DNA of 56,348 nt from Candidatus Coprosoma intestinipullorum (GCA_018713045.1 DVFV01000042.1:1-56348), one strand, 5' to 3'. Positions 3,864 to 26,291 are shown, numbered from the stretch's first letter. The notes: generated from the letters alone by a model not told the origin. Program-made: numbers and translations.

Positions 3864-3956
3864 ATAAAAAAAATAAAATTCACTCTACAAATCTTATTTT
3901 TATTATCGTAGAAGGACAAGAAAAAACAAATTTGTTATAATGAATGTAGTAGGTGT

Positions 3957-4871
3957 ATGTTTATGACAATAGAAAAATTAAAGAAATCTTTATTAAAATG
4001 TTATTCTAAAGATTTATGTTACATAAAAGTACAAGATCAATGGAATGATTCAAATAAAACTTTAGGTATGTGTGCAATCACTTCGTTAGTAGTAAATGAT
4101 TATTTTGGTGGAGAAATAGCCAAAATAAAAATTGATGGAATAAGTCATTACTTTAATTTAATACATAATCAAATAGTTGATTTAACAAAAGAACAATTTG
4201 TTAAAGAAATAAATTATGAAAATTACAAAATAATTGATAGAGAAAAAATTTTGACGGAAGATACAAATAATAGATATCAAATACTAAAAAAGAAAGTTGA
4301 AAAGAACTTATTAGAAGAAGTAGATAAAGAAGTATATAATTGCCATAAATGTAGTAATTTAGTTGAAAAGTTTCCAAACTCATCAACTGTATTTTTGGGT
4401 AAAAATAATGATATTGTTTTAATCGGAGAAGCTCCGGCAAACAATGGCTGGCGAAAAAGTCATATGTTGTGGAAAGCTATAAATGGTAAAGTATTACCTA
4501 GTGGAGTTATATTACAAAACCTATTTGATATCATAGATAAAGATATATTTGAAACTACATTTATAGAATCAGTAAAATGTTATCCAGTTGAAAGAAAAAA
4601 TTTAAAGATATGTTCTAATAACTGTAAAAGTATAATGTTTAAACAACTAGAAATATTAAAACCAAAATTAATAATTACCTTAGGAGAATTTCCTACTAGA
4701 AACCTATTAAACTTTAAATTCAAAAAGTTTTCAGATGTTGTAGGTAACATTTATGAAGTAAATGGATATAAAGTACTACCAATATATCACCCTAGTCCAA
4801 TCTCTCCAAAAAGTTATAAAGGGAATCTTCCAATATTTGAAAAGTTAAAAAATCATATGAAAGGAATCTAA
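3957..4871 (+). CDS. fusion protein: N-terminal YunG-like domain plus C-terminal uracil-DNA glycosylase superfamily (family 4/5-like) domain
   Basis: N-terminal LGMCAITSLVVNDYFGGEI...SHYFNL resembles the B. subtilis YunG family. C-terminal CHKC, motif A-like LIGEAPANNGW and motif B-like YHPSPISP. TGtTATAAT at 3933-3941. The AGGTG RBS favours ATG 3963 as the true start. Confidence 0.7.
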   Translation: MFMTIEKLKKSLLKCYSKDLCYIKVQDQWNDSNKTLGMCAITSLVVNDYFGGEIAKIKIDGISHYFNLIHNQIVDLTKEQFVKEINYENYKIIDREKILTEDTNNRYQILKKKVEKNLLEEVDKEVYNCHKCSNLVEKFPNSSTVFLGKNNDIVLIGEAPANNGWRKSHMLWKAINGKVLPSGVILQNLFDIIDKDIFETTFIESVKCYPVERKNLKICSNNCKSIMFKQLEILKPKLIITLGEFPTRNLLNFKFKKFSDVVGNIYEVNGYKVLPIYHPSPISPKSYKGNLPIFEKLKNHMKGI

Positions 4872-4872
4872 C

Positions 4873-5433
4873 GTGAAAGGAATAGTTTTAATTGGTGCTT
4901 CTAGAGCAGGTAAAAGTACGTTTTCACAAATGTTAATGAAAGAACTTAAATCATGTCAGATTATATCAGGTGATTTAGTAAGACTTGCATACAGAGATGA
5001 AATATATAAATATAAAACAGTAAAAGCAGGACTTATGAAAGAAATCCTTGAGTATCGAAAATTCTTAAAATCGTATTTTGATTATAGTGTTAAATATAGT
5101 GAAAGTTTATACGTTATTCTAGATACCGTTGATTTTAAACCGGAAGATTATAAATTGTTTGAAAATAATATTATTATAGTTTTTGGTTACCCGGACTTAA
5201 CTAAAAAAGAATGCCTTTCTAACTGGAGAACTTATCAAAGATTAAAAGATTGGACTAGAAATAAATCAGATGAAACACTTTTAGAAAAAGCTGAAAGAGA
5301 AATTGCTAAAAGCCAACAATTTGAAAAAGATTCAAAAAAATATAAGCTAAAATTTGTAAATACATCATTTAATAGAGAGAAAGTATTAACTGAACTACTT
5401 GGATGGGTAAAAAATGAGCTAAATAAAAAGTAA
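4873..5433 (+). CDS. P-loop NTPase, small-molecule/nucleotide kinase-like
   Basis: 186 aa; GTG start 6 nt after GAAAGGAA and 1 nt after the upstream stop. Walker A GASRAGKST at the extreme N-terminus, as in the (d)NMP/AAA_33 kinase fold. Confidence 0.6.
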   Translation: MKGIVLIGASRAGKSTFSQMLMKELKSCQIISGDLVRLAYRDEIYKYKTVKAGLMKEILEYRKFLKSYFDYSVKYSESLYVILDTVDFKPEDYKLFENNIIIVFGYPDLTKKECLSNWRTYQRLKDWTRNKSDETLLEKAEREIAKSQQFEKDSKKYKLKFVNTSFNREKVLTELLGWVKNELNKK

Positions 5434-5469
5434 TCATTGATATATTGATTTACTAATTATAAATTAACA

Positions 5470-5478
5470 TGCTATAAT
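5470..5478 (+). promoter_or_regulatory. extended -10 promoter element TGcTATAAT
   Basis: Exact TGnTATAAT with a TTTACT-like -35 about 17 nt upstream. Lies 160 nt before the MazG-like gene. Confidence 0.4.
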
Positions 5479-5640
5479 AAATCATAAATATCAGTGGTGA
5501 TTATATGAGTGAAAAAGTCATAAAAAGAGAACGAATTAGGAAAACTAATGATTGATGAAGTAAAAAGGATTTAAAACATTACTATATAGAATAAGAAAAT
5601 AAAACTTAATTATGAAAAAGTTATTTTAGGAGATGTAAAA

Positions 5641-5955
5641 ATGAAAAATCTTATAAAAGAGATAAAACAATTTACTGAAGAACGAGACTGGGATCAATTT
5701 CATAGCCCAGAGAATTTAGCAAAATCAATTTCTATAGAGGCAGGCGAACTATTAGAGTGCTTTCAATGGAACTCTAATTATAATATTGATGAGGTAAAAT
5801 CAGAGCTTGCTGATGTACTTAATTATTCATTATTGCTTGCAGATAAATTAGGCGTAGACCCTGAACAAATTATTTTAGACAAAATGAAGATTACTGCAAA
5901 AAAATATCCCATAGATAAAGCTAATGGAAAAAGTACAAAATATAACAAATTATAG
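5641..5955 (+). CDS. MazG-like nucleotide pyrophosphohydrolase (YpjD/DCTPP1-like small all-alpha NTP-PPase)
   Basis: 104 aa. FTEERDWDQFHSPENLAKSISIEAGELLECFQW...ELADVLNY is the characteristic MazG-like core. TAGGAG RBS. Confidence 0.85.
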   Translation: MKNLIKEIKQFTEERDWDQFHSPENLAKSISIEAGELLECFQWNSNYNIDEVKSELADVLNYSLLLADKLGVDPEQIILDKMKITAKKYPIDKANGKSTKYNKL

Positions 5956-5967
5956 GAGAAGTAAATT

Positions 5968-7692
5968 ATGAATATAAAAACATTAAAATTTAATGATGGA
6001 ACACCAGCAAACTTGAGAAATATGGAATATGGGACAAATTGGCCAGTTGTTTATATTATAAATAACGACAAAGAAGCATACATTGGTGAAACAACAGATG
6101 TTAGTATTAGATCTAATCAACATTTAGCAAATACTGTTAGAAGAAATCTTGACACAATAAATGTTATAACGGATAAAACATTTAACAAATCCGTAATTTT
6201 GGATTTGGAATCATTTCTTATAAAGTATATGGCAGCAGATAAAAAATATAAACTTCAAAATGGTAATGGAGGAATGCAAAACCATAATTATTATCAAAGA
6301 AAAATATATGAAAAAGAATTTAAAAATATATGGATTCAATTAAAATCAAAAGGATTAGTCAAACATGATTTAAAGACAATTGAAAATTCGGATTTGTTTA
6401 AATATTCTCCGTATAAAACTTTAACCGTTGATCAATATATGATTGCAAATGATATATTAAGTGTTCTCTCAAATGATATAAAAAACAAAAAAACTTCACT
6501 TTTCCTAGTTCACGGAGGGTTTGGGACAGGTAAAACAATATTAGGAATTTACTTATTGAAACTATTATCTCAAGCTAAAGATTCAACTCAAATTGAAGTA
6601 GAAGATGAAGAACTAGAATATAATTTATCAGAAATTATAAATAATGAAGCAATAAAAAAATTTAGAATAGGTTTAGTTATTCCTATGAACAATTTAAGGG
6701 CCACCTTGAAAAAAGTATTTAAAGACATTAATGGTTTAGATGCTAAAATGGTACTAAGCCCCAATGATGTGGCTAAAAGTGATAATATATATGACTTGTT
6801 AATTGTGGATGAAGCGCATCGCCTTAGAAGGAGGCAAAATTTAACACAATACAAAAGTTTTGATAACAATAATAAGAAGTTGAACTTAGGAGATAAAGGA
6901 ACAGAATTAGACTGGATTTTACTAAAAAGTAAATATCAAATACTACTTTATGATGAAAACCAATCGATTAAACCAACAGATGTTAGAAAAGAAGATTTTG
7001 AACAACTAATGTTAAGAAAAAATTATCGTCCATATTATCTTGAAACACAATTGCGCTGTTTATTAGGCGGCAATGAATATGTTGATTACATAAAAAATAT
7101 ATTTAGTAATAACCCTCCAGAGAAAAAAGTTAATTTTAAAAAATATGATTTTAAAATTTTTGATAATATAAACGACTTGATAGAAGAAATCAAACAAAAA
7201 GATAAAGAATATGGATTGTGCAGAAATATAGCAGGTTTTGCTTGGCCGTGGAAAAGTAAAGAGAAAAAATTACCATCCCATATTACCAAAAGAGAAATGA
7301 ATAATATAGTTAATAATGGAATTTATGATATCGAAATAGATGGGGAAAAATATATATGGAATACAAAAACAACAGATTGGATTAATTCATCTAATTCAGT
7401 CAATGAGATTGGTAGCATTCATACAATTCAAGGTTATGATTTAAATTATGCAGGGGTAATAATAGGAAATGAATTAAAATATGATAATAAAAAACATAAA
7501 TTTATTGTTGATAGAAAAAAATACTATGATGTAAAAGGTAAATCAGCAACAAGTGATGAAGATTTATTACAATATATATTAAATATATATTGTACAATGT
7601 GTACACGTGGTATGCTAGGGACATATTTATATGTATGTGATAAAGAATTAAAAAAATATTTACAAAAATATGTATCAACAAAACATAAATAA
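5968..7692 (+). CDS. GIY-YIG nuclease domain fused to a DUF2075/Schlafen-type P-loop helicase
   Basis: 574 aa. N-terminal VVYIINNDKEAYIGETTDVSIRSNQH (GIY-YIG), Walker A GGFGTGKT, Walker B LLIVDEAHRL. Starts 12 nt after the MazG-like stop. Confidence 0.75.
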   Translation: MNIKTLKFNDGTPANLRNMEYGTNWPVVYIINNDKEAYIGETTDVSIRSNQHLANTVRRNLDTINVITDKTFNKSVILDLESFLIKYMAADKKYKLQNGNGGMQNHNYYQRKIYEKEFKNIWIQLKSKGLVKHDLKTIENSDLFKYSPYKTLTVDQYMIANDILSVLSNDIKNKKTSLFLVHGGFGTGKTILGIYLLKLLSQAKDSTQIEVEDEELEYNLSEIINNEAIKKFRIGLVIPMNNLRATLKKVFKDINGLDAKMVLSPNDVAKSDNIYDLLIVDEAHRLRRRQNLTQYKSFDNNNKKLNLGDKGTELDWILLKSKYQILLYDENQSIKPTDVRKEDFEQLMLRKNYRPYYLETQLRCLLGGNEYVDYIKNIFSNNPPEKKVNFKKYDFKIFDNINDLIEEIKQKDKEYGLCRNIAGFAWPWKSKEKKLPSHITKREMNNIVNNGIYDIEIDGEKYIWNTKTTDWINSSNSVNEIGSIHTIQGYDLNYAGVIIGNELKYDNKKHKFIVDRKKYYDVKGKSATSDEDLLQYILNIYCTMCTRGMLGTYLYVCDKELKKYLQKYVSTKHK

Positions 7693-7734
7693 TTAGAGTT
7701 CTATAAGTACGTAAAAAATTAGAAAGGATTAAAC

Positions 7735-8979
7735 ATGAAAAAAGGAGCAGAACTATATGGAAGCCTTTTAGAGCAATATGAAATAACTGAGCATATTGCC
7801 AATGGGGGAAATTCAGAAGTATATAAGGTTAAAAATTCAAAAGGCGAAATATATGCGTTAAAATTATTAAATACAGGAATTTCTAAAGAAAAACTTAGAA
7901 GATTTAAAAATGAAATGGCTTTTTGTATTAGAACAGAAAATCCAAATATAATAAAAATAGTTGACAATGGAATTACGGATGACAAAGAACAAATATTTTA
8001 TATAATGCCCTATTATAATAAAACATTGAGAACATATATTAATGAAGAACATACTGCTCAAGATAAGATACAACTTTTTATCCGATTGTTAAAAGGAGTT
8101 TCCTTTTTTCACAAAAAAGAAATAATTCACAGAGATATAAAACCGGAAAATATTTTGCTGTCAAACGACAATTTTCCGATAATTTCTGATTTTGGAATAG
8201 CACATTTCACATCAGAAGAAATGATAACGCAAATTGAAACAAAAATTGGTAGTAAAATGGCAAATTTTCAATATGCAGCACCAGAACAAAGAGAAAAAAA
8301 TGGAATAATAACAAATAAAACAGATATCTATGCACTGGGATTAATATTTAATGAGATGTTTACTCGAAAAATACCCTTTGGCAACTCATACAAAAAAGTG
8401 AAAGATATAAATAAACAATTTGCTTTTTTAGACAAAATAATAGATAAAATGATTTCTCAAAGTCCTGACAATAGACAAAACAGCGTTGACGATGTTATTT
8501 ATGAAATAAAAGCTGAACTTGAGATAAATAAGAGGGAAAAGGAAATAAAAGAATTACAAGAAATAACATACTCTTATGATACAGAAGAAGATATACTAAT
8601 TTTGGAACCACCCAAATTAATTGATTTTAAGTATGATGATATAATTGAAAAGTTATTTTTGTACCTAGATAAAAAAGTAAATCAAGAATGGATAAACTGT
8701 ATGACAGAAAAAAGCTGTATTTCACTATTTGGATATGAACCAAAAAAATTTAGGTTTGAGAATAATGTTGCTTCTGTTAAACTTCCATTTAGTAATTTGG
8801 AAAGGTTACAATTAATTATTGATTATTTTAAAGAATGGATTAATCATGCAAATCAAGAATATCCAGCATATGTTAAAAAGAAAAGAGAACAAGAACAGTT
8901 AAGGCAAGAACAAATAATAATGAAGAAAATTGAAAGAGAGGAAAAAATAAAAAAGGAGTTGGAAAAAGCACATATTTAA
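7735..8979 (+). CDS. Ser/Thr protein kinase with an uncharacterised C-terminal domain
   Basis: 414 aa. Hanks motifs YALK, HRDIKPENILL, SDFG, AAPE. The C-terminal ~130 aa have no recognisable motif. Starts 42 nt after the upstream stop. Confidence 0.85.
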   Translation: MKKGAELYGSLLEQYEITEHIANGGNSEVYKVKNSKGEIYALKLLNTGISKEKLRRFKNEMAFCIRTENPNIIKIVDNGITDDKEQIFYIMPYYNKTLRTYINEEHTAQDKIQLFIRLLKGVSFFHKKEIIHRDIKPENILLSNDNFPIISDFGIAHFTSEEMITQIETKIGSKMANFQYAAPEQREKNGIITNKTDIYALGLIFNEMFTRKIPFGNSYKKVKDINKQFAFLDKIIDKMISQSPDNRQNSVDDVIYEIKAELEINKREKEIKELQEITYSYDTEEDILILEPPKLIDFKYDDIIEKLFLYLDKKVNQEWINCMTEKSCISLFGYEPKKFRFENNVASVKLPFSNLERLQLIIDYFKEWINHANQEYPAYVKKKREQEQLRQEQIIMKKIEREEKIKKELEKAHI

Positions 8980-9006
8980 AAACTATATTAAACATAATCA
9001 AATTCT

Positions 9007-9039
9007 AAACACCATATCAAAATTGGTGTTTTATTTTTA
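9007..9039 (+). terminator. rho-independent terminator after the kinase gene
   Basis: AAACACCA (9007-9014) / TGGTGTTT (9024-9031) stem with a 9-nt loop, then TTATTTTTA. Confidence 0.6.
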
Positions 9040-9073
9040 TTATGATATACTAAAAATGTAATGGAGTTTGTGT

Positions 9074-11566
9074 ATGAGAAGAATTTTGATTGATGGTGTA
9101 GATAAAACAAAAGAGATTGAAAGTATAAAATTAAATAATAATAACTATATTATTAAATTTAAAAATAGTGATAAACAATATAATTATTCAAACGAAAGAA
9201 TAAAAATAGAAAACAATAATTTTGAAAACAATCTAAAATATTTTAAAGAAATAGCTGAAAAAGTGAGCATAGTTGTAGGTGGATATAATGTTCTTGGTTC
9301 AAGATATAAAAAATTAGATAATTTAAATAAAGATAGTATTTTAAATTGTTATTTAAAAGGTACTTTGCCACCAGCATATAGAATAGTTCGGCATGCTAGA
9401 TTTCCTTTTGGTTTCAATCAAAGCCAAAAACTAGCTACAGAAAGAGCTATCACAAATAGAATAAGCGTTATAGAAGGCCCACCAGGAACCGGAAAAACTC
9501 AAACAATCTTAAATATAATATCTAATTTAGTTATGAATGGAGAAACAGTTGCTGTTGTTTCCAATAATAATTCAGCCATTCAAAATGTCTATGATAAGTT
9601 AAAAAGCAATAATTTAGATTTTCTAGTTGCATTTCTAGGCAAAGATAAAAACAAAACAGAATTTATTGAAAATCAAAAAGAATTACTAAACTTAGATGCA
9701 TGGTTAATAACTGATGAAGAAGCTGAAAACAAGATAAACTTTCTAAACAATAAAGAATACGAGTTAAATAGAAAACTAGAAGATCAGAATAAACTTGCTA
9801 AAGATATTCAGTATTTAGAAGCTCTAAGCCTCGAATCAAAACAATTCTCAAAATATTATAAAACGAGAACCAAAAATATTGCCATAAAATGGTGGCGTAA
9901 TCCAAATTATAAAAACCTATTAAAATTATGGCTTGAATTAGAAAATAAATCTACAATCTCAATATATTCAAAAATAAAATATTTTATTAAATATGGTCTT
10001 TTACCATTTGATATTTTTGACAATAACTTAAATGATATAATTTTAGAATTAAAAAATCTTTATTATAAAAATCGTGTTACTAATTTAACAAAAGAAATTA
10101 ACAGATTAAAAACAAGTCTAAATAACTATAATATTAAAGAGGAAATGAAACATTATACAGAAATATCGATGCAAATATTTAAACATAGACTTGCAAAAAG
10201 ATATAAAAAGGTTAAGCGAAAGAAATATGAAAAATCAGATTTAAAAAGAATGTCAGCTGAATTTCTTAAAGACTATCCTGTTATTTTAAGTACAACCTAT
10301 TCTTTAGTATCAAGCTTATCAAAAAATATAATGTATGATTATATAATTGTCGACGAATCATCGCAGGTAGACTTAATAACCGCTGTATTATCACTATCAT
10401 GTGCGAAAAACGTTGTTATTGTTGGTGATTTAAAACAGCTATCCAACGTTGTTACAAATGAAAACGCCATTATAAGTGATCAAATCTGGTTAAAATATAA
10501 TATATCAAACGAATATCGCTATCGGAATCATAATCTATTATCTTCAGTTATAGAACTTTATCCTGATATAACCAAAACTATGTTAAAAGAACATTACCGT
10601 TGCAATCCAAAAATAATAAACTTTTGTAACTTAAAATTTTATAATAATGAATTAATTATCTTATCAAATTCAAATCCATCTAAAGATACGTTACAAATGT
10701 ATGTTACAAGCGTTGGTAACCACGCTCGAGATCACGTAAATAGAAGACAATTAGATATAATCAGAGAAGAAATACTTCCTTCAACATATAATGATGAATC
10801 GATTGGTATTATTTCTCCATATGTAAATCAAAGTAATCTATTAAAACAAGAATTCAAAAACTATTCTAACGTTCAGGCTGACACAGTAGATAAATTTCAA
10901 GGAAGAGAAAAAAATATAATTATATTTTCAAGTGTCGACAATAAAATCAAGAGTTTTACTGATCAACCTAATAGATTAAATGTTGTTGTTTCAAGAGCTA
11001 TAAATAAGTTTATTCTAGTAGTCAATGACTCTGCCATAACTAATACAAATGGTAATATCCAAGATCTAATTAAGTACATAAAGTATCAAGATGGTAAAAT
11101 AGTAAACAGTAAACTACACAGTTGTTTTGATTTGCTATATAAAGAGTATTATAGAGAAAGACAAAAAATAGCTAAAAGAACAGGAATTATAAGTGAAGAT
11201 ATATTTTATGAAGAATTATTAAAAATATTAAACAAAAATCATATAGATGGTTATGATATCATAACTCATGTACCATTAGATGAAATCATTGAAGACTTAG
11301 ATTCACTAACAAAAGAAGAAATGAAATTTAAAAAAAATATTCATTCCCATGTTGACTTCTTAATATTTGATAGAGCATCTTCTGAATATCGTTTAGCTAT
11401 CGAAGTAGATGGTGGTTATCATAATCCATTTAATCAAGAAAACACCCATCAAGTTCATAACGATGAGTTAAAAAACAGAATGTTTGAAAAAGCCGGACTT
11501 CCGTTAATAAGATGTAAAACTGATGGAATACCTGACGAAAAAGAAATAATTAAATATTTAAACTAG
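9074..11566 (+). CDS. Upf1/DNA2-like SF1 helicase fused to a C-terminal DUF2726-type (restriction-endonuclease-fold) domain
   Basis: GPPGTGKTQT, IIVDESSQ, VGDLKQL, HYRCNPKIINFCNLKFY, VDKFQGREKNIIIFS, RLNVVVSRA. C-terminal HVDFLIFD..AIEVDGGYHN..ELKNRMFEKAGLPLIR. ATG 9074 lies 7 nt after GGAG; the ORF track starts at TTG 9068. Confidence 0.8.
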   Translation: MRRILIDGVDKTKEIESIKLNNNNYIIKFKNSDKQYNYSNERIKIENNNFENNLKYFKEIAEKVSIVVGGYNVLGSRYKKLDNLNKDSILNCYLKGTLPPAYRIVRHARFPFGFNQSQKLATERAITNRISVIEGPPGTGKTQTILNIISNLVMNGETVAVVSNNNSAIQNVYDKLKSNNLDFLVAFLGKDKNKTEFIENQKELLNLDAWLITDEEAENKINFLNNKEYELNRKLEDQNKLAKDIQYLEALSLESKQFSKYYKTRTKNIAIKWWRNPNYKNLLKLWLELENKSTISIYSKIKYFIKYGLLPFDIFDNNLNDIILELKNLYYKNRVTNLTKEINRLKTSLNNYNIKEEMKHYTEISMQIFKHRLAKRYKKVKRKKYEKSDLKRMSAEFLKDYPVILSTTYSLVSSLSKNIMYDYIIVDESSQVDLITAVLSLSCAKNVVIVGDLKQLSNVVTNENAIISDQIWLKYNISNEYRYRNHNLLSSVIELYPDITKTMLKEHYRCNPKIINFCNLKFYNNELIILSNSNPSKDTLQMYVTSVGNHARDHVNRRQLDIIREEILPSTYNDESIGIISPYVNQSNLLKQEFKNYSNVQADTVDKFQGREKNIIIFSSVDNKIKSFTDQPNRLNVVVSRAINKFILVVNDSAITNTNGNIQDLIKYIKYQDGKIVNSKLHSCFDLLYKEYYRERQKIAKRTGIISEDIFYEELLKILNKNHIDGYDIITHVPLDEIIEDLDSLTKEEMKFKKNIHSHVDFLIFDRASSEYRLAIEVDGGYHNPFNQENTHQVHNDELKNRMFEKAGLPLIRCKTDGIPDEKEIIKYLN

Positions 11567-11671
11567 AAGAAAAACTATAATATAAATATATACTGTATGT
11601 ATTGATTTGTTAGATAAAAAATGATAATGTAATACATAAATTTTTTTGTTAAAATAAATAAAGGAGATATT

Positions 11672-14600
11672 ATGGACGAAGAAATAAAAAATGAACTTAA
11701 CAAAATATTGAATGAATTACCAACCGAAAATTCTTGGCTAGATTATAAAGCAAAAGCGTATGAAAAATCAGAACTTGCTAGTTTGACAAATGATTTATGT
11801 GCGTTTTTAAACTCGGAACAATCTTTTGGAAGAAATAAATATATAATTTGTGGAATAGGTGATAATAAAGATAGGCTTGAAATAAAAGAAAAAGATATGC
11901 TGGATGACCATTATTTCCAAGATGTTGCTAAAAAAATATATCCAACCCCCAAAATAGAAACAGGTACTTTTAAGCATGTATATAGAGGAAAAGAATATTG
12001 TTATGGTTATATTTTAATATCTAAAGATAATGATGATAGAGTTTATGAAATAGAAAACGGGAAAATAAAAAGAGATGATAATAATCTATATACTATTAAA
12101 CAAATTTGTGAACAGAACGTTTTTGCACCTGTTGCATGGATAAGAATTGGCAGTACAAAAGATATACTTAAAGAACCAACCCGAAGGAGAATCTATGAAT
12201 TTGATAATTTAAAAAAGAAATTCACAGTAAATGATAATATAGGATATCTTCTTGATGACAATAGGGCAAAAAATGATAAAATAATAAAGACAGCTTTATT
12301 ATTTGGTGAATGGAATGAAAATAATATAAATGATAAAAAAATAATAGAAAAATTTTCTGAATTTTCTTATAATGAGTTCATTGAAATTATTAGACAACTT
12401 GCAAAAAATGAAAAAAATTTTTATTTTAAAAATGGAGTCTGGAAAATAAAAAATCGAATTAAATATATTGAATTTTATTCTTTGAATTTTTACAAAGAAG
12501 ATTTAGAAAGTTTTAAAAAAATAATTGTTGAAATTTTAAGTGAAAAACATCCTAAATTTGATTTATCTTCAGACAAAAGGTATTTATATAATATATACAA
12601 TAAAGTCATAAAATACTCGGCCGAAATAAGGAATGGTGTAGCTGAAACATTAGTATTTGTTGAATACTTGAAAAGTAATTTTGAAAATTGTAAAGACGCA
12701 GCAGCAAACTTTTCTGTTCTAACTATTAGAAATATTTTAGAAAGTTCAAATTGGTATACATGGGCAAGTCTTGATAATTTATTGCCACTTTTTGCAGAGG
12801 CGTCTCCATCAGAATATTTACAACAATTAAAAAAATATTTATTTAATGATAAAGAAAAGAAAATATTGATTGAGAAAGAAGAAGGTATAACTACTTATAA
12901 TTATTCAACGTCTATATATTCTAGTTTGGAACTTATTGCATGGAATAAAGAATATTGTGTTAGTGCTTGTATGATTTTATTTGAATTTGCAAAGGAAGAT
13001 AAAAAAGCAATTAATCATATAGTAAATATTATTTTACCATGGCATCCAAATACATTTGCCCCATTATCATACAGATTAGTAATTGTCGAAAATATAATAA
13101 AAAGAGATATTTTAATAGGATGGCAAATCTTAAAAAAACTTATGCCAGAAGAGGTTACTTATGCTATACCAACATATAAACCAAAATATATAAATGTTCC
13201 AAAAGATGATATTTCTGTTACTAATGAAGAATATTTTAATCAAATTGATTTATATTTAGATATAATGATTAAAAATTGTAAAACAAGCAATGATAGATTG
13301 CTTGATCTAATTAACTTATTAAACAAGGTATCTAAGAAAAACTTTTATAAAATATGTAATTATTTAAAGTCCTCAAAAGTTTGTAAAAAGAATGATAGTA
13401 GTAAGTATAAATTATGGGACAATTTAGAGATAACTGTTTCTTGGATAAAAAAACATTCTCAAATAAATGCTGAAGCAAAGAAAGAAATGTTAGAAAAAAT
13501 AAATGAAGTTATAAACTGTTTAAAACCTCAAAACAATTTATATGTCATTTCAAGGTTGTTTAAGAATGATGAGTGGAAATTATTTGATGAATATGATAAT
13601 TATGACGAAGCAGAAAAAAAACTTTCTAAATTACAATTTGACTGCATATTAAATATATATAAGGAAAATGGAATTAAAAAAATAATCGAATTAGCAAAAA
13701 TTGTTGAAGACACATTTTTACTAGGTATCATTACCTCAAAAATAAAAATATCTTATGAGGACGAGAAAAATATAGTGGTTTCCAATTTAGACAAAAGAAA
13801 AAAATTAATTGAATATGCAAAAGGATATGTTTACAATAAATATAACCTTCAAAAAAATAAATATGATAGTGAAATGATTAATAATTTATCTAATAAATCA
13901 AAACTTAATTTTTTGTTGATGTTACCGTATACCATTTTAACATTTAAAAATGTAGAACGATTTTTAGGAAAAGATTATAAAAAATATTGGAAACAAGTTG
14001 ATATAAGAATTATAAATGAAGAAGAAGCATTAAATTATAGCATTATTAAATTAATGGAGGTAAAAAGATATGAAAGAGTGCTTTGGATGTATAGACTTTC
14101 ATTGCAAAGTAATAAACAGATTAAATGTGATAATAATATTATACTAACTTGTCTCGAAAAAATAAAAAGCAATTTTAATAAATATGATATCTGTGAAGCA
14201 ATAAAGGATTTACAAGAAAATAATGCTAATGAAGAAAGATTATTTAATATAGAATGGAAATTTTTACCGTTGCTTAATGATAAAAAATATAGACCAATTA
14301 CAATAGAGAAAGTAATTTCTACGAATGCTAATAAGTATTCTGAAATATTAGAATTAGCATTTAAAGAGAAATCAAAAATAAATACTGAAAGCAACATTAA
14401 TCCAGATGTTGCAACAAATGCGTATAGATTATTACATCAATGGAAATTAGTTCCTGGGACTAATGATGACGGATATATTAATTCAGTTAAACTAAAAGAA
14501 TGGTATGAAGAAATGCAAAATATTTGTAATAAAAAAGATCGACTAGAAGTTGGATTACTATACTTTGGGAAAGTACTATTTTATTCTCCTGAAGATAAAT

Positions 14601-14872
14601 CACATTTTTGGATAGATAAAACTGTTGCGGAGATACTCAACAATAATGAAACAATTAGAAGAGGTTATACAAACGAAGCATTTAATTCAATCGGTATAAT
14701 TAAATGGGATGAAAAGGGCTCAGAGTATTTGAAATACTGCAATGAATATAAAAAGAAAGCAGAGGATACTGAAATAGCCGGTTACTATAATTTTGCAATG
14801 GCATTAAGAGATGTTGCAGATAATTTTAATCGACAAGCAGAATATGTAAAGGATAGATATCATGACTTCTAA
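11672..14872 (+). CDS. 1066-aa protein with an N-terminal AlbA_2/Schlafen-type domain and a long helical region of unknown function
   Basis: AAAGGAG RBS. N-terminal ENSWLDYKAKAY...YIICGIGD fits the AlbA_2 pattern. I recognise no catalytic or NTPase motif in the remaining ~930 aa. Confidence 0.6.
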   Translation: MDEEIKNELNKILNELPTENSWLDYKAKAYEKSELASLTNDLCAFLNSEQSFGRNKYIICGIGDNKDRLEIKEKDMLDDHYFQDVAKKIYPTPKIETGTFKHVYRGKEYCYGYILISKDNDDRVYEIENGKIKRDDNNLYTIKQICEQNVFAPVAWIRIGSTKDILKEPTRRRIYEFDNLKKKFTVNDNIGYLLDDNRAKNDKIIKTALLFGEWNENNINDKKIIEKFSEFSYNEFIEIIRQLAKNEKNFYFKNGVWKIKNRIKYIEFYSLNFYKEDLESFKKIIVEILSEKHPKFDLSSDKRYLYNIYNKVIKYSAEIRNGVAETLVFVEYLKSNFENCKDAAANFSVLTIRNILESSNWYTWASLDNLLPLFAEASPSEYLQQLKKYLFNDKEKKILIEKEEGITTYNYSTSIYSSLELIAWNKEYCVSACMILFEFAKEDKKAINHIVNIILPWHPNTFAPLSYRLVIVENIIKRDILIGWQILKKLMPEEVTYAIPTYKPKYINVPKDDISVTNEEYFNQIDLYLDIMIKNCKTSNDRLLDLINLLNKVSKKNFYKICNYLKSSKVCKKNDSSKYKLWDNLEITVSWIKKHSQINAEAKKEMLEKINEVINCLKPQNNLYVISRLFKNDEWKLFDEYDNYDEAEKKLSKLQFDCILNIYKENGIKKIIELAKIVEDTFLLGIITSKIKISYEDEKNIVVSNLDKRKKLIEYAKGYVYNKYNLQKNKYDSEMINNLSNKSKLNFLLMLPYTILTFKNVERFLGKDYKKYWKQVDIRIINEEEALNYSIIKLMEVKRYERVLWMYRLSLQSNKQIKCDNNIILTCLEKIKSNFNKYDICEAIKDLQENNANEERLFNIEWKFLPLLNDKKYRPITIEKVISTNANKYSEILELAFKEKSKINTESNINPDVATNAYRLLHQWKLVPGTNDDGYINSVKLKEWYEEMQNICNKKDRLEVGLLYFGKVLFYSPEDKSHFWIDKTVAEILNNNETIRRGYTNEAFNSIGIIKWDEKGSEYLKYCNEYKKKAEDTEIAGYYNFAMALRDVADNFNRQAEYVKDRYHDF

Positions 14873-14879
14873 ATTTATT

Positions 14880-15277
14880 TATGAGATTGTAAGGGCAGAA
14901 AACGGTAAAGTATTCTGTCCTTTTTGTCATAGTTTATATATTATTAAGGCTTTGCTAAGAAAAATAATATAAATTTAATACAGATAAAATCTGGAACGTA
15001 AAAAAATGATAGCGGAGATACTTTAGCTGATGTTAATCAACTTCAATCAGGATTAGAATCTTTTTTATCTCATTTTTATGGTGTCTCCTCTAAACACTTA
15101 CAACATTATTTAGACTAGCATTCATTTGATAAATACATAAATTATACTGTTAAAATATTAAATCAAGCACATGACATTGAATCTACAGTCATAACAAAAA
15201 ACACTGATATTTTATATAAAAATAACAGTGGTTTAGACTTTAATGAGTTAGCGTTCATTTTTCAATTAACTTACTAA
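14880..15277 (+). pseudogene. decayed IS1595-family transposase remnant (Zn-ribbon N-terminal fragment plus C-terminal fragment; DDE core deleted; in-frame TAG)
   Basis: 14880-14972 encodes RAENGKVFCPFCHSLYIIK (IS1595-type zinc ribbon). 15002-15277 encodes SGLESFLSHFYGVSSKHLQHYLD*HSFDKY, matching the conserved ...FW..LKR...G.YH.VS.KHLQRYLDEF.F tail, with TAG at 15116-15118. Confidence 0.55.
14892..14926 (+). terminator. probable rho-independent terminator after the 1066-aa gene
   Basis: AGGGCAGAA (14892-14900) / TTCTGTCCT (14913-14921): 9-bp stem with one G-T pair and a 12-nt loop, then TTTTTG. Confidence 0.45.
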
Positions 15278-15641
15278 ATCCAATAATGGTATCACTGAGT
15301 GAATTTTATAAAGTCTAATTTAAATTATTAATAATTTCTGTACTGAGGTTAGACATTCTATTTACGGTTAAATTTAAAAGATAATGACTGCCCATGTATT
15401 AATTGCATTCATCAAATATGGAGTATACATTTTATAAATTTCATGATGTATTCTATTAATCGCCTCAATAAGACTTTTACTCATTATACTAACCAAATTA
15501 GAATAGTATGCATTTACATATTTCTTATCTAATAAATTTATAGATTTGTTGGGATGATTTTTTCATCATTTGGTGGAGTAATGTTTTTGTTTTTTTCATT
15601 TTAAATATCCCTCTCATTCAAAAAGCTCATACAATAACACA

Positions 15642-16877
15642 TTATTCTTCTTTTTCTACAATATTTTCTATTTCTTTACCTATCTTTTCAATTACTCCTA
15701 CAACTAAGGCATTTCCCATCATAAAATATCTTTTTCTATCAGTCATTCCAGTATTAGTCCAATCATCCGGAAAACCATTAATTCGCTCACATTCTTTAGG
15801 CGTTAATAAACGTAATTTTTTAGTTTGATAATCTTCAATAACATGGGTAGTTCTACTAACTCCACTTTCACTAGTAAGCATAGTTCTTGCAGGCGCATCT
15901 AAATTATCTGGAAAAGGCATTGAGCCTTCAGAGTAATAATACGGTTCACCATTAGGTTTAACTCTTGGAATTTTTTTACTTCCTTTTAAAAATTCAAACT
16001 TCTTAATTTGGTCTTTATTTAAAAAATATTTTTTATCCACACCGCCAGTTTCTCTAATTTTTCTTAAAGGATAAATTTTGTCACAGTCAGCTTTGACTTT
16101 AACAGTATATATTCCACCATTCTTCATAACTCCTGCATTATAAAATTGACATTTAAACATATTGCTTACTTCGACTAAATCTTTATATTCCGAAATATCA
16201 GCTTTATTAATAGCTAAATATTCAGATTGAATTGGAAACTCTTTTGAAAAAATTCCTTCGTCAAAAACAATATTTCTATCATTAAGCTTATGCATCTCTT
16301 TATAATATTTTGTTGACTTATGATATGCAAAAATATAAGTTCTTCTTCTTTTCTGAGGAAGTCCATATTCTCCCGCGTTAATAACTCTCCATTGTACATC
16401 ATAACCATTTTCATAAAAACTTCTAAGCATCATTCCAAAATCTCTCCCACGTTGCTTAGCCGGTGAAAGAAGTAATCTATCGACATTTTCAAGCAATACA
16501 AAAGGTGGTTTTTTAATTGATAAAGTTTCTTCTATTGCCCACCATAAAACACCTTTTTTTCCTTCAATACCTTTACTATTTGAAAGAGTTTGCGCAACTG
16601 AATAATCTTGACATGGAAATCCGCCAACTAATAAAGTATGATCTGGTATATCATTTTTATCTACCTCAAATATGTCTACATTAGAAACATCTCCACCAAA
16701 TCTTTTTTTATAACACTCATATGCTTCTTGACTTTTAGTTGCAGGTTCCCATTGATTCGCCCATAAAAACTTCCAATTACCATTTTCAATAACTTTCCCA
16801 TTTTTTAGTTCGACATGATTTAAACCACATCTAAATCCGCCAACACCAGCAAACAATTCTATAGCTGTTTTCTTCAT
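15642..16877 (-). CDS. DNA (cytosine-5)-methyltransferase, M.Sau3AI-like
   Basis: 411 aa. Motif I ELFAGVGGF, motif IV GGFPCQDYS, motif VI ENV, C-terminal GNALVV. AAGGAGGG RBS. Size and partner match M.Sau3AI (412 aa from memory). Confidence 0.9.
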   Translation of the reverse strand: MKKTAIELFAGVGGFRCGLNHVELKNGKVIENGNWKFLWANQWEPATKSQEAYECYKKRFGGDVSNVDIFEVDKNDIPDHTLLVGGFPCQDYSVAQTLSNSKGIEGKKGVLWWAIEETLSIKKPPFVLLENVDRLLLSPAKQRGRDFGMMLRSFYENGYDVQWRVINAGEYGLPQKRRRTYIFAYHKSTKYYKEMHKLNDRNIVFDEGIFSKEFPIQSEYLAINKADISEYKDLVEVSNMFKCQFYNAGVMKNGGIYTVKVKADCDKIYPLRKIRETGGVDKKYFLNKDQIKKFEFLKGSKKIPRVKPNGEPYYYSEGSMPFPDNLDAPARTMLTSESGVSRTTHVIEDYQTKKLRLLTPKECERINGFPDDWTNTGMTDRKRYFMMGNALVVGVIEKIGKEIENIVEKEE

Positions 16878-23614: not shown

Positions 23615-25105
23615 TTGAAGGACGTGTTGTATTTGAATATAAGTAACAAATTAGTAAAACCGATAACTGAAACCGCATATCTCAATACCGAAAACACTAA
23701 TCGGTATCGTCCAATTATGCGTTTTTTTTATCATAAATACGAACAAGCCGAAAACTGGCTTTATAAAGAAGACGTATATAATGCCCTAAAAGACCAAATT
23801 GATGGCTACACAATAGAAGATTGCCAAAGAGATTTGGATTTTCTTGTGGAAAAATTATCTCTTGCAACCGTTCAAGATACCGAAAACGCATCAACCTTAG
23901 AAAAATTCAAATTTAAAAATTATCGCTATCAAATGACCGACTATGCCATCGAAATTGAACGAATGACTATTAGACTTGAAGAAATGGAAGTTAAAGTTGC
24001 TTCTCTCGAGCCAAGACTATTTGAAAGAATCAAACTAAGACTTGAAAAATTTCTTAAAATCAAAACCATGCCCGAACAAGAAATATATGAAAATTGGACT
24101 GACCTCATGCAAGATTTCACTAACCTTAACCAAAGCTATCAAGATTTTCTAAAAAAATTTAGTGAACCCAAAACCGAAGAACTACTTCAAAGCAAACTCT
24201 TTATCCAGCACAAAAACTCTTTAGTTAGTTACCTTAGAAACTTCATTAAAGAATATATTTCTGCTAGCTCAGAAATATCAAACATTTTAAAACAAATAAC
24301 TGAGGAAGATTCAAACTATTTAATGGATAGCTTAATCTCTCATCAAAAGAAAGCCCCAAAAATAAGACCTGATTTTGACTTTGACTATTTAAAACTCGTT
24401 AATACCGGTAAATGGAATAGCCTTAGAAAATGGTTTGTCGCATGTGAAAGTGATATTAGCGAAGGTGATAGATTACTCAAAGCCACCAACAATATAATCT
24501 CTAAAATAACCAAATACGCTTCCAGCCTAATTGAACTTCACGGAAACATGGTAAATCGTAAAGAAGAATATAAATATCTCTGCCATCTCTTTGACTCCAA
24601 GGAAAACCTAGAAGAAGCTCATACCTTAGCGGGGACCATTTTAGGAGTTCAAGTAGTCAGACATTTCAAAGGAAATACCCCATTAAATAGTGATTCAATA
24701 ATCAAAACCTTAGAAGTAAAGCCAAACTTTATCAAAGTTGAACCTATGAAAAAAAGTTTAAAAATTGCTCAGTCACGTATACCAATTAAAGATAAAACTA
24801 AGGAAAAAGAAGAAATCCTAAAGAAATATGAAGAAGAAGAGAAGCGCAAAAAAGCAGTTCTTCATAGCTTAATAAGTCAAGGTCATATCGACCTAACTGG
24901 CGAAGTTACCCTTACTAAAGAAGAAAGAAACTATGTCCTATCCATATTAACCAAAAATCGTAATGGCGTTCATCAAGACCCAGTCTTTGGCCTTCCATAT
25001 AAAATTGAAAGAAAAGAAGGCACATGTCAAATAAAATCCGAAGACGGAACATTCCAAATGGATAGTCTATATATAACACTAGGTGGTGATGCAAATGGAA
25101 GATGA
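23615..25105 (+). CDS. jetA: Wadjet JetA (TIGR02677/DUF2397-type kleisin-like subunit)
   Basis: 496 aa. N-terminal TETAYLNTENTNRYRPIMRFFY matches the family's YL....YR.I.R.F start. First gene of an overlapping four-gene cassette with the expected sizes. Start uncertain (TTG 23615, or GTG/TTG at 23624-23633). Confidence 0.8.
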   Translation: MKDVLYLNISNKLVKPITETAYLNTENTNRYRPIMRFFYHKYEQAENWLYKEDVYNALKDQIDGYTIEDCQRDLDFLVEKLSLATVQDTENASTLEKFKFKNYRYQMTDYAIEIERMTIRLEEMEVKVASLEPRLFERIKLRLEKFLKIKTMPEQEIYENWTDLMQDFTNLNQSYQDFLKKFSEPKTEELLQSKLFIQHKNSLVSYLRNFIKEYISASSEISNILKQITEEDSNYLMDSLISHQKKAPKIRPDFDFDYLKLVNTGKWNSLRKWFVACESDISEGDRLLKATNNIISKITKYASSLIELHGNMVNRKEEYKYLCHLFDSKENLEEAHTLAGTILGVQVVRHFKGNTPLNSDSIIKTLEVKPNFIKVEPMKKSLKIAQSRIPIKDKTKEKEEILKKYEEEEKRKKAVLHSLISQGHIDLTGEVTLTKEERNYVLSILTKNRNGVHQDPVFGLPYKIERKEGTCQIKSEDGTFQMDSLYITLGGDANGR

Positions 25106-26291
25106 AAATTTAAGCAAAGAAATGGACCTTTTATTAAATAATTACTGGATAACTAAAGATGAATCACCAGAAGACTACTACCTTTTAAAAAGAAAACAAA
25201 CACCTCTTCGAAAGTTCATCTCTAAAAATCTTGGTAGTAACCTCCTTGTCCATGATCGCTTTATCAAACTTGAAAAAATATCCAGTATACCTTCAAAAGA
25301 CCAAGGAATTGAAGAATTCTTAAACACTATGGATTATGTTCTTTTGTTCATCATGCTAATCTACCTCGAAGATAAACCACGTGGTGAAAAATTTATTCTC
25401 TCATCCCTTATAGAATACGTCAAAAACACCGCTATAACTCTTGAACTTTCAAACATCCCAGATTGGAACTATGCCTCACATCGCCGAAACCTAGTCAGAG
25501 TAATCAATTATCTTCTAGAAAAACACATAATAATCCTCAAAGACGAAGACAAAATAAGCTTTCAAGAAGACAAAACTGCCGATGCCTTATATGAAGTAAC
25601 CGGTATATCCAATTACCTAATTCCTCACTTTGGAACAGATATCTATAACCTTAAAACACCAGAAGAATTTCTCGAAATTCAGTGGGTTGGCCAAGACCAA
25701 GCCCATGGTGATATCAGGCGTTACAAAGTATATAGAAACCTTTTATACTTGCCGGCAATTTACCGTGAAAATATCTCAGATAGTGAAGACGATTACTTAA
25801 GGAAGATGCACAAAAACATTGAAAAAGAACTCCTTGACAATCTAGATCTGACAACCGAAATAACCAAAAATATGGCTCTCATATATACAGATGAATCATC
25901 TATTCAAAAAGATTATTTTCCAAACAATAAAAGAATTACCGATATTATCCTTTTAATAAACAAAGAAATAGCTGATTACATAAACCGTGCAAATATTAAA
26001 CAAAGTCCTTTAGAAACATTTACTATAAACTCGGATACCTTAAAACAAATCATAACCGAATCACGTGAAAAACTAAAACCATACTTTAGTAAAGCATACC
26101 TTAACCTAACCCCTAAAAAATATTTGGAAGAAATTATTCAAACTATGGAAGACTATCATTTCATCAAAGAAAATATAAGTACATTTACAGTCTATCCTCT
26201 TATCTATCGTTTCCTTGGTGACCCAGAACCAGTAAAAAAAGAAAATAATGAACAAATAGAAATATTCGGAGGTGAAGAATATGAATTATAA
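25095..26291 (+). CDS. jetB: Wadjet JetB (TIGR02678/DUF2398-type)
   Basis: ~398 aa. Overlaps the end of jetA; AGGTGGTG RBS 6 nt before ATG 25095 (track start GTG 25083). Assignment is by size and position in the cassette. Confidence 0.75.
   Translation: MEDENLSKEMDLLLNNYWITKDESPEDYYLLKRKQTPLRKFISKNLGSNLLVHDRFIKLEKISSIPSKDQGIEEFLNTMDYVLLFIMLIYLEDKPRGEKFILSSLIEYVKNTAITLELSNIPDWNYASHRRNLVRVINYLLEKHIIILKDEDKISFQEDKTADALYEVTGISNYLIPHFGTDIYNLKTPEEFLEIQWVGQDQAHGDIRRYKVYRNLLYLPAIYRENISDSEDDYLRKMHKNIEKELLDNLDLTTEITKNMALIYTDESSIQKDYFPNNKRITDIILLINKEIADYINRANIKQSPLETFTINSDTLKQIITESREKLKPYFSKAYLNLTPKKYLEEIIQTMEDYHFIKENISTFTVYPLIYRFLGDPEPVKKENNEQIEIFGGEEYEL

Follow-up and report, generated by a model that had tools for sequence, protein, structure and literature searches.

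The closest described systems to the gene pair presented here are nuclease-helicases of bacterial immunity. Nhi of S. epidermidis (SERP2475) is a PD-(D/E)XK-DUF2075 enzyme that blocks the accumulation of phage DNA by way of replication intermediates (bioRxiv 10.1101/776245), and a similarly built 'Nhi-like' protein has been described in B. cereus (Millman et al. 2022). The helicase family concerned, PF09848, is a long-standing entry in lists of families associated with defence (PMC10121019), and fusions of GIY-YIG nucleases to DUF2075 have been mentioned in passing (PMC6765204). Here we describe a locus containing such a fusion, found within 56,348 nucleotides (nt) of Candidatus Coprosoma intestinipullorum DNA (GCA_018713045.1 DVFV01000042.1:1-56348); this whole stretch is referred to below as the window. 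A previous sequence-only reading had interpreted three consecutive genes, at 5470-9039, as a single defence operon composed of a MazG-like pyrophosphohydrolase, a GIY-YIG/DUF2075 nuclease-helicase and a Ser/Thr kinase. The reading that we favour, with a probability of around 0.6, is that the region contains two independent units, namely a MazG-nuclease-helicase pair, probably directed against phage or mobile DNA, and a stand-alone kinase cassette. The genes and the boundary between the units are as follows (aa, amino acids; positions are counted from the first letter of the window).

5641-5955, plus strand: gene 1, MazG-like, 104 aa (open reading frame, PF12643)
5968-7692, plus strand: gene 2, GIY-YIG plus DUF2075/superfamily 1B (SF1B) helicase, 574 aa (open reading frame, PF09848)
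7735-8979, plus strand: Hanks-type Ser/Thr kinase, 414 aa (open reading frame, PF00069), a separate unit
7675-7734, no strand assigned: module boundary and 42-nt spacer preceding the kinase; homology to a kinase-less relative stops at 7674

The division into two units emerges from comparison with other genomes. A scan of one genome per species revealed relatives of gene 2 in at least 573 species. The best 80 species-level loci, with gene 2 identities of 44-72%, were used for a tblastn census of synteny; they are drawn from Bacilli, Clostridia, Bacteroidota and Gammaproteobacteria, from Patescibacteria (many of them Saccharibacteria) and, in one case, from an archaeal metagenome-assembled genome (MAG). 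A MazG-like gene adjoins the DUF2075 gene at 75 of these 80 loci, whereas a homologue of the kinase does so at none. Eight further loci, from two Bacillus megaplasmids, one GenBank phage-like scaffold and five IMG/VR contigs, all share the adjacent MazG gene, bringing the total to 83 of 88. The megaplasmid copies, in which the two proteins are annotated as 'nucleotide pyrophosphohydrolase' and 'DUF2075 domain-containing protein', have an identity of 33%, and the adjacency is seen to persist over DUF2075 identities from 100% down to this value. The MazG gene most often lies immediately upstream on the same strand and is sometimes downstream or divergent (order is reversed or divergent in loci L054, L084, L039, L050 and L083). 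The distance from stop to start codon has a median of 3 nt, with 55 of the 59 measured cases at 30 nt or less or overlapping. Furthermore, pairwise identities of the MazG and DUF2075 proteins correlate across loci (Mantel r = 0.51, a value reached by 0 of 999 permutations). No third gene is conserved alongside them, the 147 immediate neighbours belonging to 114 Pfam families of which the largest has at most four members.

The MazG and GIY-YIG/DUF2075 genes are thus a tightly coupled and co-evolving two-gene module, which is accessory and has spread horizontally. Close homologues of the 574-aa protein number in the thousands, the family forms around 410 clusters at 50% identity (E <= 1e-30), and the phyla represented include Bacillota, Bacteroidota and Patescibacteria. 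Horizontal transfer is indicated by the patchiness of this distribution together with identities of 45-70% between phyla. An origin of the pair in phage was considered and rejected on account of its rarity in viral collections, where it was found in 5 of 2.9 million IMG/VR contigs and where 50,697 phage records yielded one strong match. Some individual loci show local elaborations. Two Clostridia MAGs have an additional gene between the MazG and DUF2075 genes, encoding a 376-aa Hypoth_Ymh-domain protein in one (L024:5840-6970) and an unassigned 128-aa protein in the other (L025:860-1246). On the megaplasmids p419 of Bacillus mycoides (L098) and pIS56-233 of B. thuringiensis (L099) MazG is immediately preceded by an HNH endonuclease gene, and in the former the pair is followed by a second HNH gene, a DEAD/DEAH helicase and a TOPRIM protein; the megaplasmid copies may belong to a larger, lineage-specific cluster.

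By sequence, gene 1 is an all-alpha nucleoside-triphosphate pyrophosphohydrolase of the DCTPP1/RS21-C6 type. It matches PF12643 with an E-value of 7.8e-20 and a score of 71.4 bits, to be compared with a curated cut-off of 27, and its sequence matches in the PDB are an archaeal pyrophosphatase (4qgp, 3e-16) and mammalian dCTP pyrophosphatase 1 (2a3q and 6sqw, 9e-16). The homology to DCTPP1 is clear and extends to both the EExxE(12-28)ExxD metal site and a KYP...KY tail. At least 96% of 68 partner proteins retain the metal-binding acids E33, E36, E39, E55 and D58 as well as the C-terminal KYP..K..G...KY tail, from which we conclude that enzyme activity is under selection. Known members of the DCTPP1/RS21-C6 group are stand-alone house-cleaning enzymes, whereas gene 1 is coupled to a nuclease-helicase. 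DCTPP1 prefers dCTP and 5-modified dCTP.

On the evidence of sequence and predicted structure, gene 2 joins a GIY-YIG nuclease to an SF1B helicase, which is of the DUF2075/Schlafen-group-3 type. The helicase portion, at around aa 177-558 (nt 6496-7641), matches PF09848 (SLFN-g3_helicase/DUF2075) at 3.4e-61 over all 354 of its 354 profile positions. The N-terminal portion, at around aa 25-100 (nt 6040-6267), scores 22.3 bits against the GIY-YIG family PF01541, just below the cut-off of 22.6; six homologues pass this cut-off with 23.2-29.7 bits, and the top PDB matches of a family profile for the N-terminal region are all GIY-YIG nucleases (T4 EndoII, UvrC and I-TevI). Across 76 sequences, conservation is seen both at N-terminal residues (Y29, Y38, G40, R48, H52, E81 and N98) and at the Walker A, Walker B and arginine motifs of the helicase (GTGKT190, DEAH, D281, E282, R419 and R547). 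No sequence relatives of the whole 574-aa protein were found in the PDB. An AlphaFold2 (AF2) model, with a predicted local distance difference test (pLDDT) value of 79.5, is most similar in Foldseek searches to Upf1, RecD, RecD2, Dda and Dna2, all SF1B helicases.

In many lineages the nuclease-helicase carries a further domain. A C-terminal Peptidase_S24 domain, an autopeptidase of the LexA/CI type, is present at 27 of 77 species loci with Pfam E-values down to 1.9e-19, in most cases in Patescibacteria such as the Saccharibacteria; these are L068 (6995-9016) and 26 other loci among L041-L097, and MazG is still found directly upstream. It is likewise present in eight of ten long representatives sampled, and P0243, P0246, P0252, P0258, P0272, P0287 and P0326 are among the representatives that carry it. 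This fusion suggests that, in many lineages, the enzyme is controlled by RecA filaments on single-stranded DNA (RecA-ssDNA). Two representatives are built differently: in P0345 (700 aa) a C-terminal HTH_3 domain of the cI/XRE type replaces S24, and P0288 (730 aa) has an additional N-terminal HSDR_N nuclease, of PD-(D/E)XK type, before the GIY-YIG domain. Gene 2 of the window has no S24, HTH_3 or HSDR_N additions.

Comparison with the Nhi proteins reveals both shared and distinguishing features. As in gene 2, an N-terminal nuclease precedes an SF1B helicase overlapping DUF2075/PF09848, Dda, Upf1 and Dna2 are related to both in fold, and a location in defence islands is common to both; the effector logic of attacking replicating phage DNA is probably shared too. 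However, the Nhi nuclease is of the PD-(D/E)XK/NERD type rather than GIY-YIG, and Nhi acts alone, whereas gene 2 has a near-obligate MazG partner and its homologues often bear a C-terminal S24 domain. No PADLOC model named for Nhi matches gene 2 at E <= 0.01, and when the Nhi-like protein of B. cereus is compared by BLASTP, only the P-loop aligns (E = 0.03). Given the different nuclease, the lack of similarity beyond the P-loop and the presence of two genes, membership of the Nhi and Nhi-like families was rejected. The eukaryotic group III Schlafen proteins SLFN5, SLFN11 and SLFN13 have a helicase domain in the same Pfam family as gene 2, which lacks the Schlafen/AlbA_2 RNase domain and has a GIY-YIG nuclease instead; papers on bacterial Schlafen defence concern that RNase domain, not the SLFN-g3 helicase. 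With the dNTP-depleting defence enzymes, dCTP deaminase and dGTPase, and with the logic of SAMHD1, the pair may share the principle of starving phage of deoxynucleotides. Those enzymes belong to an unrelated family and act as single genes.

PADLOC v2 contains no named system matching the pair, and the sequence-only reading had recognised none in the trio; gene 2 makes weak partial matches only to the models PDC-S14 and PDC-S41. Literature searches found no paper in which DUF2075 or Nhi occurs together with MazG, nor a MazG-like enzyme coupled to a nuclease-helicase. Judged against PADLOC v2 and the literature searched, the pair is therefore provisionally considered undescribed.

From these comparisons we infer a defence function, complex formation between the two proteins, likely substrates and a role for S24, which would combine as follows. 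The pair would act against phage or mobile DNA at the level of DNA replication. By analogy with Nhi, the helicase would load on foreign or aberrant replication intermediates, which the GIY-YIG domain would then cut. The MazG protein is probably a physical partner of the larger one. The role that we put first for it is to hydrolyse dCTP, or else dNTPs that are non-canonical or phage-modified, which fits the preference of DCTPP1 for dCTP and its 5-modified forms and would amount to an attack on the precursors of phage DNA; a regulatory or antitoxin-like restraint of the nuclease comes second and removal of a nucleotide signal third. The S24-bearing variants would be gated by RecA-ssDNA, which fits sensing of phage replication and fits SOS-linked repair equally well. 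A fuller and more tentative version of this scheme, to which we give distinctly less weight than to the division into two units, is that the pair is a widespread, undescribed two-gene anti-phage system, in which MazG would strip away modified or required dNTPs while the nuclease-helicase destroys replicating phage DNA, with S24 providing a RecA-ssDNA switch in many variants.

The kinase presents a very different picture from the 75 of 80 adjacencies of MazG. The window was compared by blastn with L002, a relative with a DUF2075 protein 87% identical to that of the window. Alignment extends from 3912 to 7674 at 91% identity and resumes from 15643 at 99%, the break at 7674/7675 falling 18 nt before the DUF2075 stop codon. 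The intervening block (7675-15642), which contains the kinase, an SF1 helicase-DUF2726 gene and a gene for a 1066-aa AlbA_2 protein, is exchanged in L001-L004 for HamA/HamB (Hachiman) and a Mutator-type transposase. With 91% identity in the left flank and 99% in the right, the locus is evidently a mosaic in which the block occupies a variable slot. In L009-L011, at 76-82% identity to the window, the kinase still follows the pair; in L009 a 4.7-kb restriction-modification (R-M) block is inserted exactly between window positions 8994 and 8996, parting the kinase from the helicase-DUF2726 gene. Kinase homologues (38-67% identity) are found without the pair in five other contexts (L012-L017 and L108-L112), such as next to a serine recombinase on the border of a type I R-M/Hachiman island, in the interval from MutS2 to an integrase/Mob element, adjoining a Dcm/MutH R-M pair, and after SNF2-PLD and MmeI-type methylase genes. 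In L012-L017 and L110-L111 the kinase is repeatedly found directly downstream of a serine recombinase gene (313-554 aa) at the edges of defence islands; this arrangement calls to mind a report in which serine recombinases serve as markers of defence loci (PMC13552941).

The kinase is thus an independent, Hanks-type single-gene cassette occupying a variable slot downstream of the pair. Its kinase domain, at aa 1-277, matches Pkinase PF00069 at 3.5e-37, and K43, E60, HRD132-134, N139, DFG152-154 and the APE motif are invariant in 43 homologues. The AF2 model has a pLDDT of 89 and PknB as its best fold match. A family-specific C-terminal domain at around aa 280-414, modelled as a small beta domain and a long helix, has no match in Pfam or PADLOC, and a global Foldseek search with the kinase model returned kinase domains only, yielding no fold for this part. 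Four PADLOC models match the kinase domain: mad6 (2e-46), PD-T4-6 (1e-44), the N-terminus of MkoA (3e-33) and Stk2 (2e-26). Set beside PD-T4-6, Stk2 and MAD6, the window kinase has a complete Hanks kinase domain and behaves as a mobile single gene in defence islands; in each case only that domain matches, and aa 280-414 resemble none of them. The PD-T4-6 models cover only aa 9-282, and since they also flag housekeeping kinases of the PknB type (PMC11514479), such a match does not establish membership. The Stk2 model match (1.7e-26, aa 11-277 only) is weaker than the generic PknB match (8e-45). MAD6 was rejected, the NCBIfam score being 135 bits against a cut-off of 460, with no other mad genes adjacent. 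We therefore regard the protein as a candidate single-gene defence kinase, similar in its kinase domain to PD-T4-6 and Stk2 and assigned to neither family.

These results bear directly on the original proposal of one three-gene operon, in which nucleotide-pool and nuclease-helicase activities would be under kinase control and which was to be judged by the synteny of the trio across genomes. The genes do share a strand, only 42 nt separate gene 2 from the kinase, no terminator lies between these two, a plausible hairpin is found only after the kinase, and the order is identical in the diverged L009-L011. Nevertheless, no kinase family is among the recurrent neighbours of the pair, the closest relatives have Hachiman in its place with a sharp break at 7674, and kinase homologues are found on their own, with recombinases, integrases or R-M genes next to them. 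The census and the homology breakpoints together rule out the trio as a conserved system, and a kinase controlling, or controlled by, the other two is now very improbable. The coupling of the nucleotide enzyme to the nuclease-helicase survives the census; the kinase does not. The notion of a single transcription unit survives in part, because in the absence of a terminator-like element from the 42-nt gap the kinase could be co-transcribed in this window by read-through from the upstream promoter, an arrangement that is not conserved. Even less credible is an assignment of the kinase and the downstream SF1 helicase-DUF2726 gene (9068-11566) to a split system resembling Mokosh type I, in which MkoA fuses a kinase to a helicase (Millman 2022 supplement). 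The MkoA model PDLC03920, of 1112 positions, does match the kinase at positions 7-286 (3e-33) and the helicase at 616-1099 (4.5e-46). However, a hairpin and T-run lie between the two genes, the R-M block separates them in L009-L011, no such helicase is found near the homologues in L012-L017 and L108-L111, and the helicase ends in its own nuclease-like DUF2726 domain. We rejected this assignment because the genes are separable in relatives and a PLD gene resembling MkoB is absent.

For the pair itself, the main rival to a defensive role is housekeeping after DNA damage, which we consider unlikely though weightier than any other alternative. The MazG protein would sanitise damaged or non-canonical dNTPs and the GIY-YIG-helicase would deal with damaged DNA or stalled forks in the manner of UvrC or Dna2, the whole being wired to the SOS response through S24 in many lineages. 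Consistent with this, the nearest solved MazG relatives are house-cleaning enzymes, GIY-YIG is the fold of the UvrC nuclease, gene 2 resembles Dna2 and RecD, among others, in fold, and the S24 fusions are of LexA type. Several observations count against our preferred reading of the pair as defensive. A repair role would be equally in keeping with the S24 fusion and with the fact that enzymes of the DCTPP1 type do house-cleaning; the pair is common in the reduced genomes of Patescibacteria, and one of its flanks borders the core genes ClpP, gap and pgk in L005-L008; and the assignment to defence comes from sequence and context rather than from experiment. Five of the 88 loci (L031, L040, L049, L078 and one more) have no adjacent MazG gene, showing that the helicase-nuclease can exist without it. 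On the side of the kinase, its position after the pair in two diverged variants (the window and L009-L011), with no terminator between, makes a functional link specific to this lineage conceivable. Set against the repair role are the patchy, cross-phylum distribution indicative of horizontal transfer and flanks that are highly heterogeneous even within Saccharibacteria. The recurrent neighbours of the pair are of defence type and include Cas9, Mrr, NERD, HNH, DpnI, Fic/SoFic, NYN and DUF3800, together with matches to PADLOC models for MADS, type IV restriction and candidate PDC systems; these are raw counts, uncorrected for the genomic background. The location of the window copy in a BREX/Wadjet island and the carriage of others on Bacillus megaplasmids beside HNH and TOPRIM genes also favour defence over repair, as does the experimentally defensive character of Nhi and Nhi-like, DUF2075 proteins with other nucleases. 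Somewhat less probable again than repair is a toxin-antitoxin or abortive-infection module, in which MazG, or the nucleotide that it destroys, would hold a nuclease-helicase toxin inactive until infection released it and the cell died. A small gene directly upstream of a large nuclease gene at 0-12 nt is typical antitoxin-toxin order, the two proteins co-evolve, and over-expression of Nhi slows growth of its host (bioRxiv 10.1101/776245). However, the strong conservation of the MazG catalytic acids points to an enzymatic and not merely steric role, a few loci have the large gene without MazG, and the order is reversed or divergent at the five loci listed above.

If the pair is indeed defensive, it would be a common system missed by the current PADLOC v2 models, and a second, non-homologous solution to the nuclease-helicase design of Nhi that needs a nucleotide-hydrolysing partner. 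The partnership with MazG offers an experimental handle on how nucleotide-pool enzymes cooperate with DNA-targeting effectors, and the recurrent S24 fusion a testable mechanism of sensing through RecA-ssDNA. The pair is also one of few candidate immune modules that are frequent in Patescibacteria. Both of its proteins have human relatives, DCTPP1 in one case and the helicase domain of SLFN5, SLFN11 and SLFN13 in the other, so that human antiviral and nucleotide-sanitising families would, if our reading is true, be linked to one bacterial immune module. A practical consequence is that a clone of 5.4-9.1 kb taken to be one 'system' would combine two unrelated units, and its phenotypes would be confounded.

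The features that the sequence-only reading described at this locus were confirmed. The three same-strand open reading frames are separated by gaps of 12 nt (5956-5967) and 42 nt (7693-7734), and Shine-Dalgarno-like AGGAG, AGGAG and AAAGGA lie 6-9 nt 5' of the respective ATG codons. The motifs reported as intact (EAGELLE, VVYII..AYIGE, GFGTGKT, VDEAH, YALK, HRD, DFG and APE) are all present in the translations, and Pfam agrees with the three domain assignments, the borderline GIY-YIG being backed by homologues and PDB profile matches. Two signals that it placed at the ends of the region require more caution.

5449-5478, plus strand: candidate sigma-70-type promoter of the pair, TTTACT plus TGcTATAAT (10 of 12 hexamer matches, TG present)
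9007-9039, plus strand: hairpin AACACCA/TGGTGTT followed by a T-run, a weak candidate terminator (fold energy)

The extended -10 element proposed at 5470-5478 is there (TGCTATAAT), and a promoter scan adds TTTACT at 5449-5454 with a spacer of 18 nt. However, promoter-like sites in this 26% GC (guanine plus cytosine) DNA are no commoner than chance, 65 being observed against 63.6 expected from shuffled sequence, and the call consequently depends on where the site lies and on a single close relative that shares it: the promoter and the 160-nt leader are kept only in the 91%-identical L002 and not in more distant relatives. No Rfam family matches anywhere in the window, leader included; with the leader conserved only in that closest relative, a regulatory RNA there or elsewhere was rejected. 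Similarly, the proposed terminator does contain a hairpin, AACACCA-N9-TGGTGTT with a stem of 7-8 bp, followed by TTTATTTTTATT, and its region folds at -13.1 kcal/mol (z = -2.76). The terminator scan did not call it, as G-C pairs are too few and the loop is 9 nt, so it is best described as plausible but weak. It lies just beyond the second module boundary, at 8994-8996.

The defence context claimed for the locus was borne out by the neighbouring genes, the pair being situated within a large island that runs from BREX to Wadjet on a 170-kb metagenomic contig of a low-GC, Bacillota-like organism. Base composition over 1-24 kb is uniform (24-29% GC) and hence offers no hint of recent transfer. BREX type 1 genes lie upstream (PglX-type methylase, HEPN, PglZ and BrxL); BrxL, at 273-2303, marks the end of this system, with PglX, HEPN and PglZ immediately before it on the source contig. 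The interval between BREX and the pair holds two genes of no assigned function, a YunG-UDG fusion and a 186-aa P-loop protein. Downstream of the kinase come the SF1 helicase-DUF2726 gene and the 1066-aa protein with an AlbA_2/Schlafen-type N-terminus, and further on a Dcm methylase with a MutH/Sau3AI-like endonuclease, a WYL regulator and a Fic protein. A 654-aa PfkB-domain protein is also encoded between the BREX and Wadjet-type genes, the latter being a JetABC set at 23615-30345 made up of DUF2397, DUF2398 and a 1357-aa SbcC-like protein.

Two elements of this island deserve separate description. The genes at 3957-5433 encode a 304-aa fusion of YunG to a family 4 uracil-DNA glycosylase (UDG) and, after a gap of 1 nt, the 186-aa P-loop protein, which is adenylate-kinase-like. 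They are conserved alongside the pair only in its nearest relatives, L001-L004, and were rejected as members of the module, being present at 0-1 of the 80 other loci; they may represent another defence pair, directed at nucleotides or bases. The 1066-aa protein, encoded at 11672-14872, has an N-terminal SLFN_AlbA_2 domain (2e-7) as its sole match, with none in PADLOC or NCBIfam, and is a large candidate defence gene inside the swapped block.

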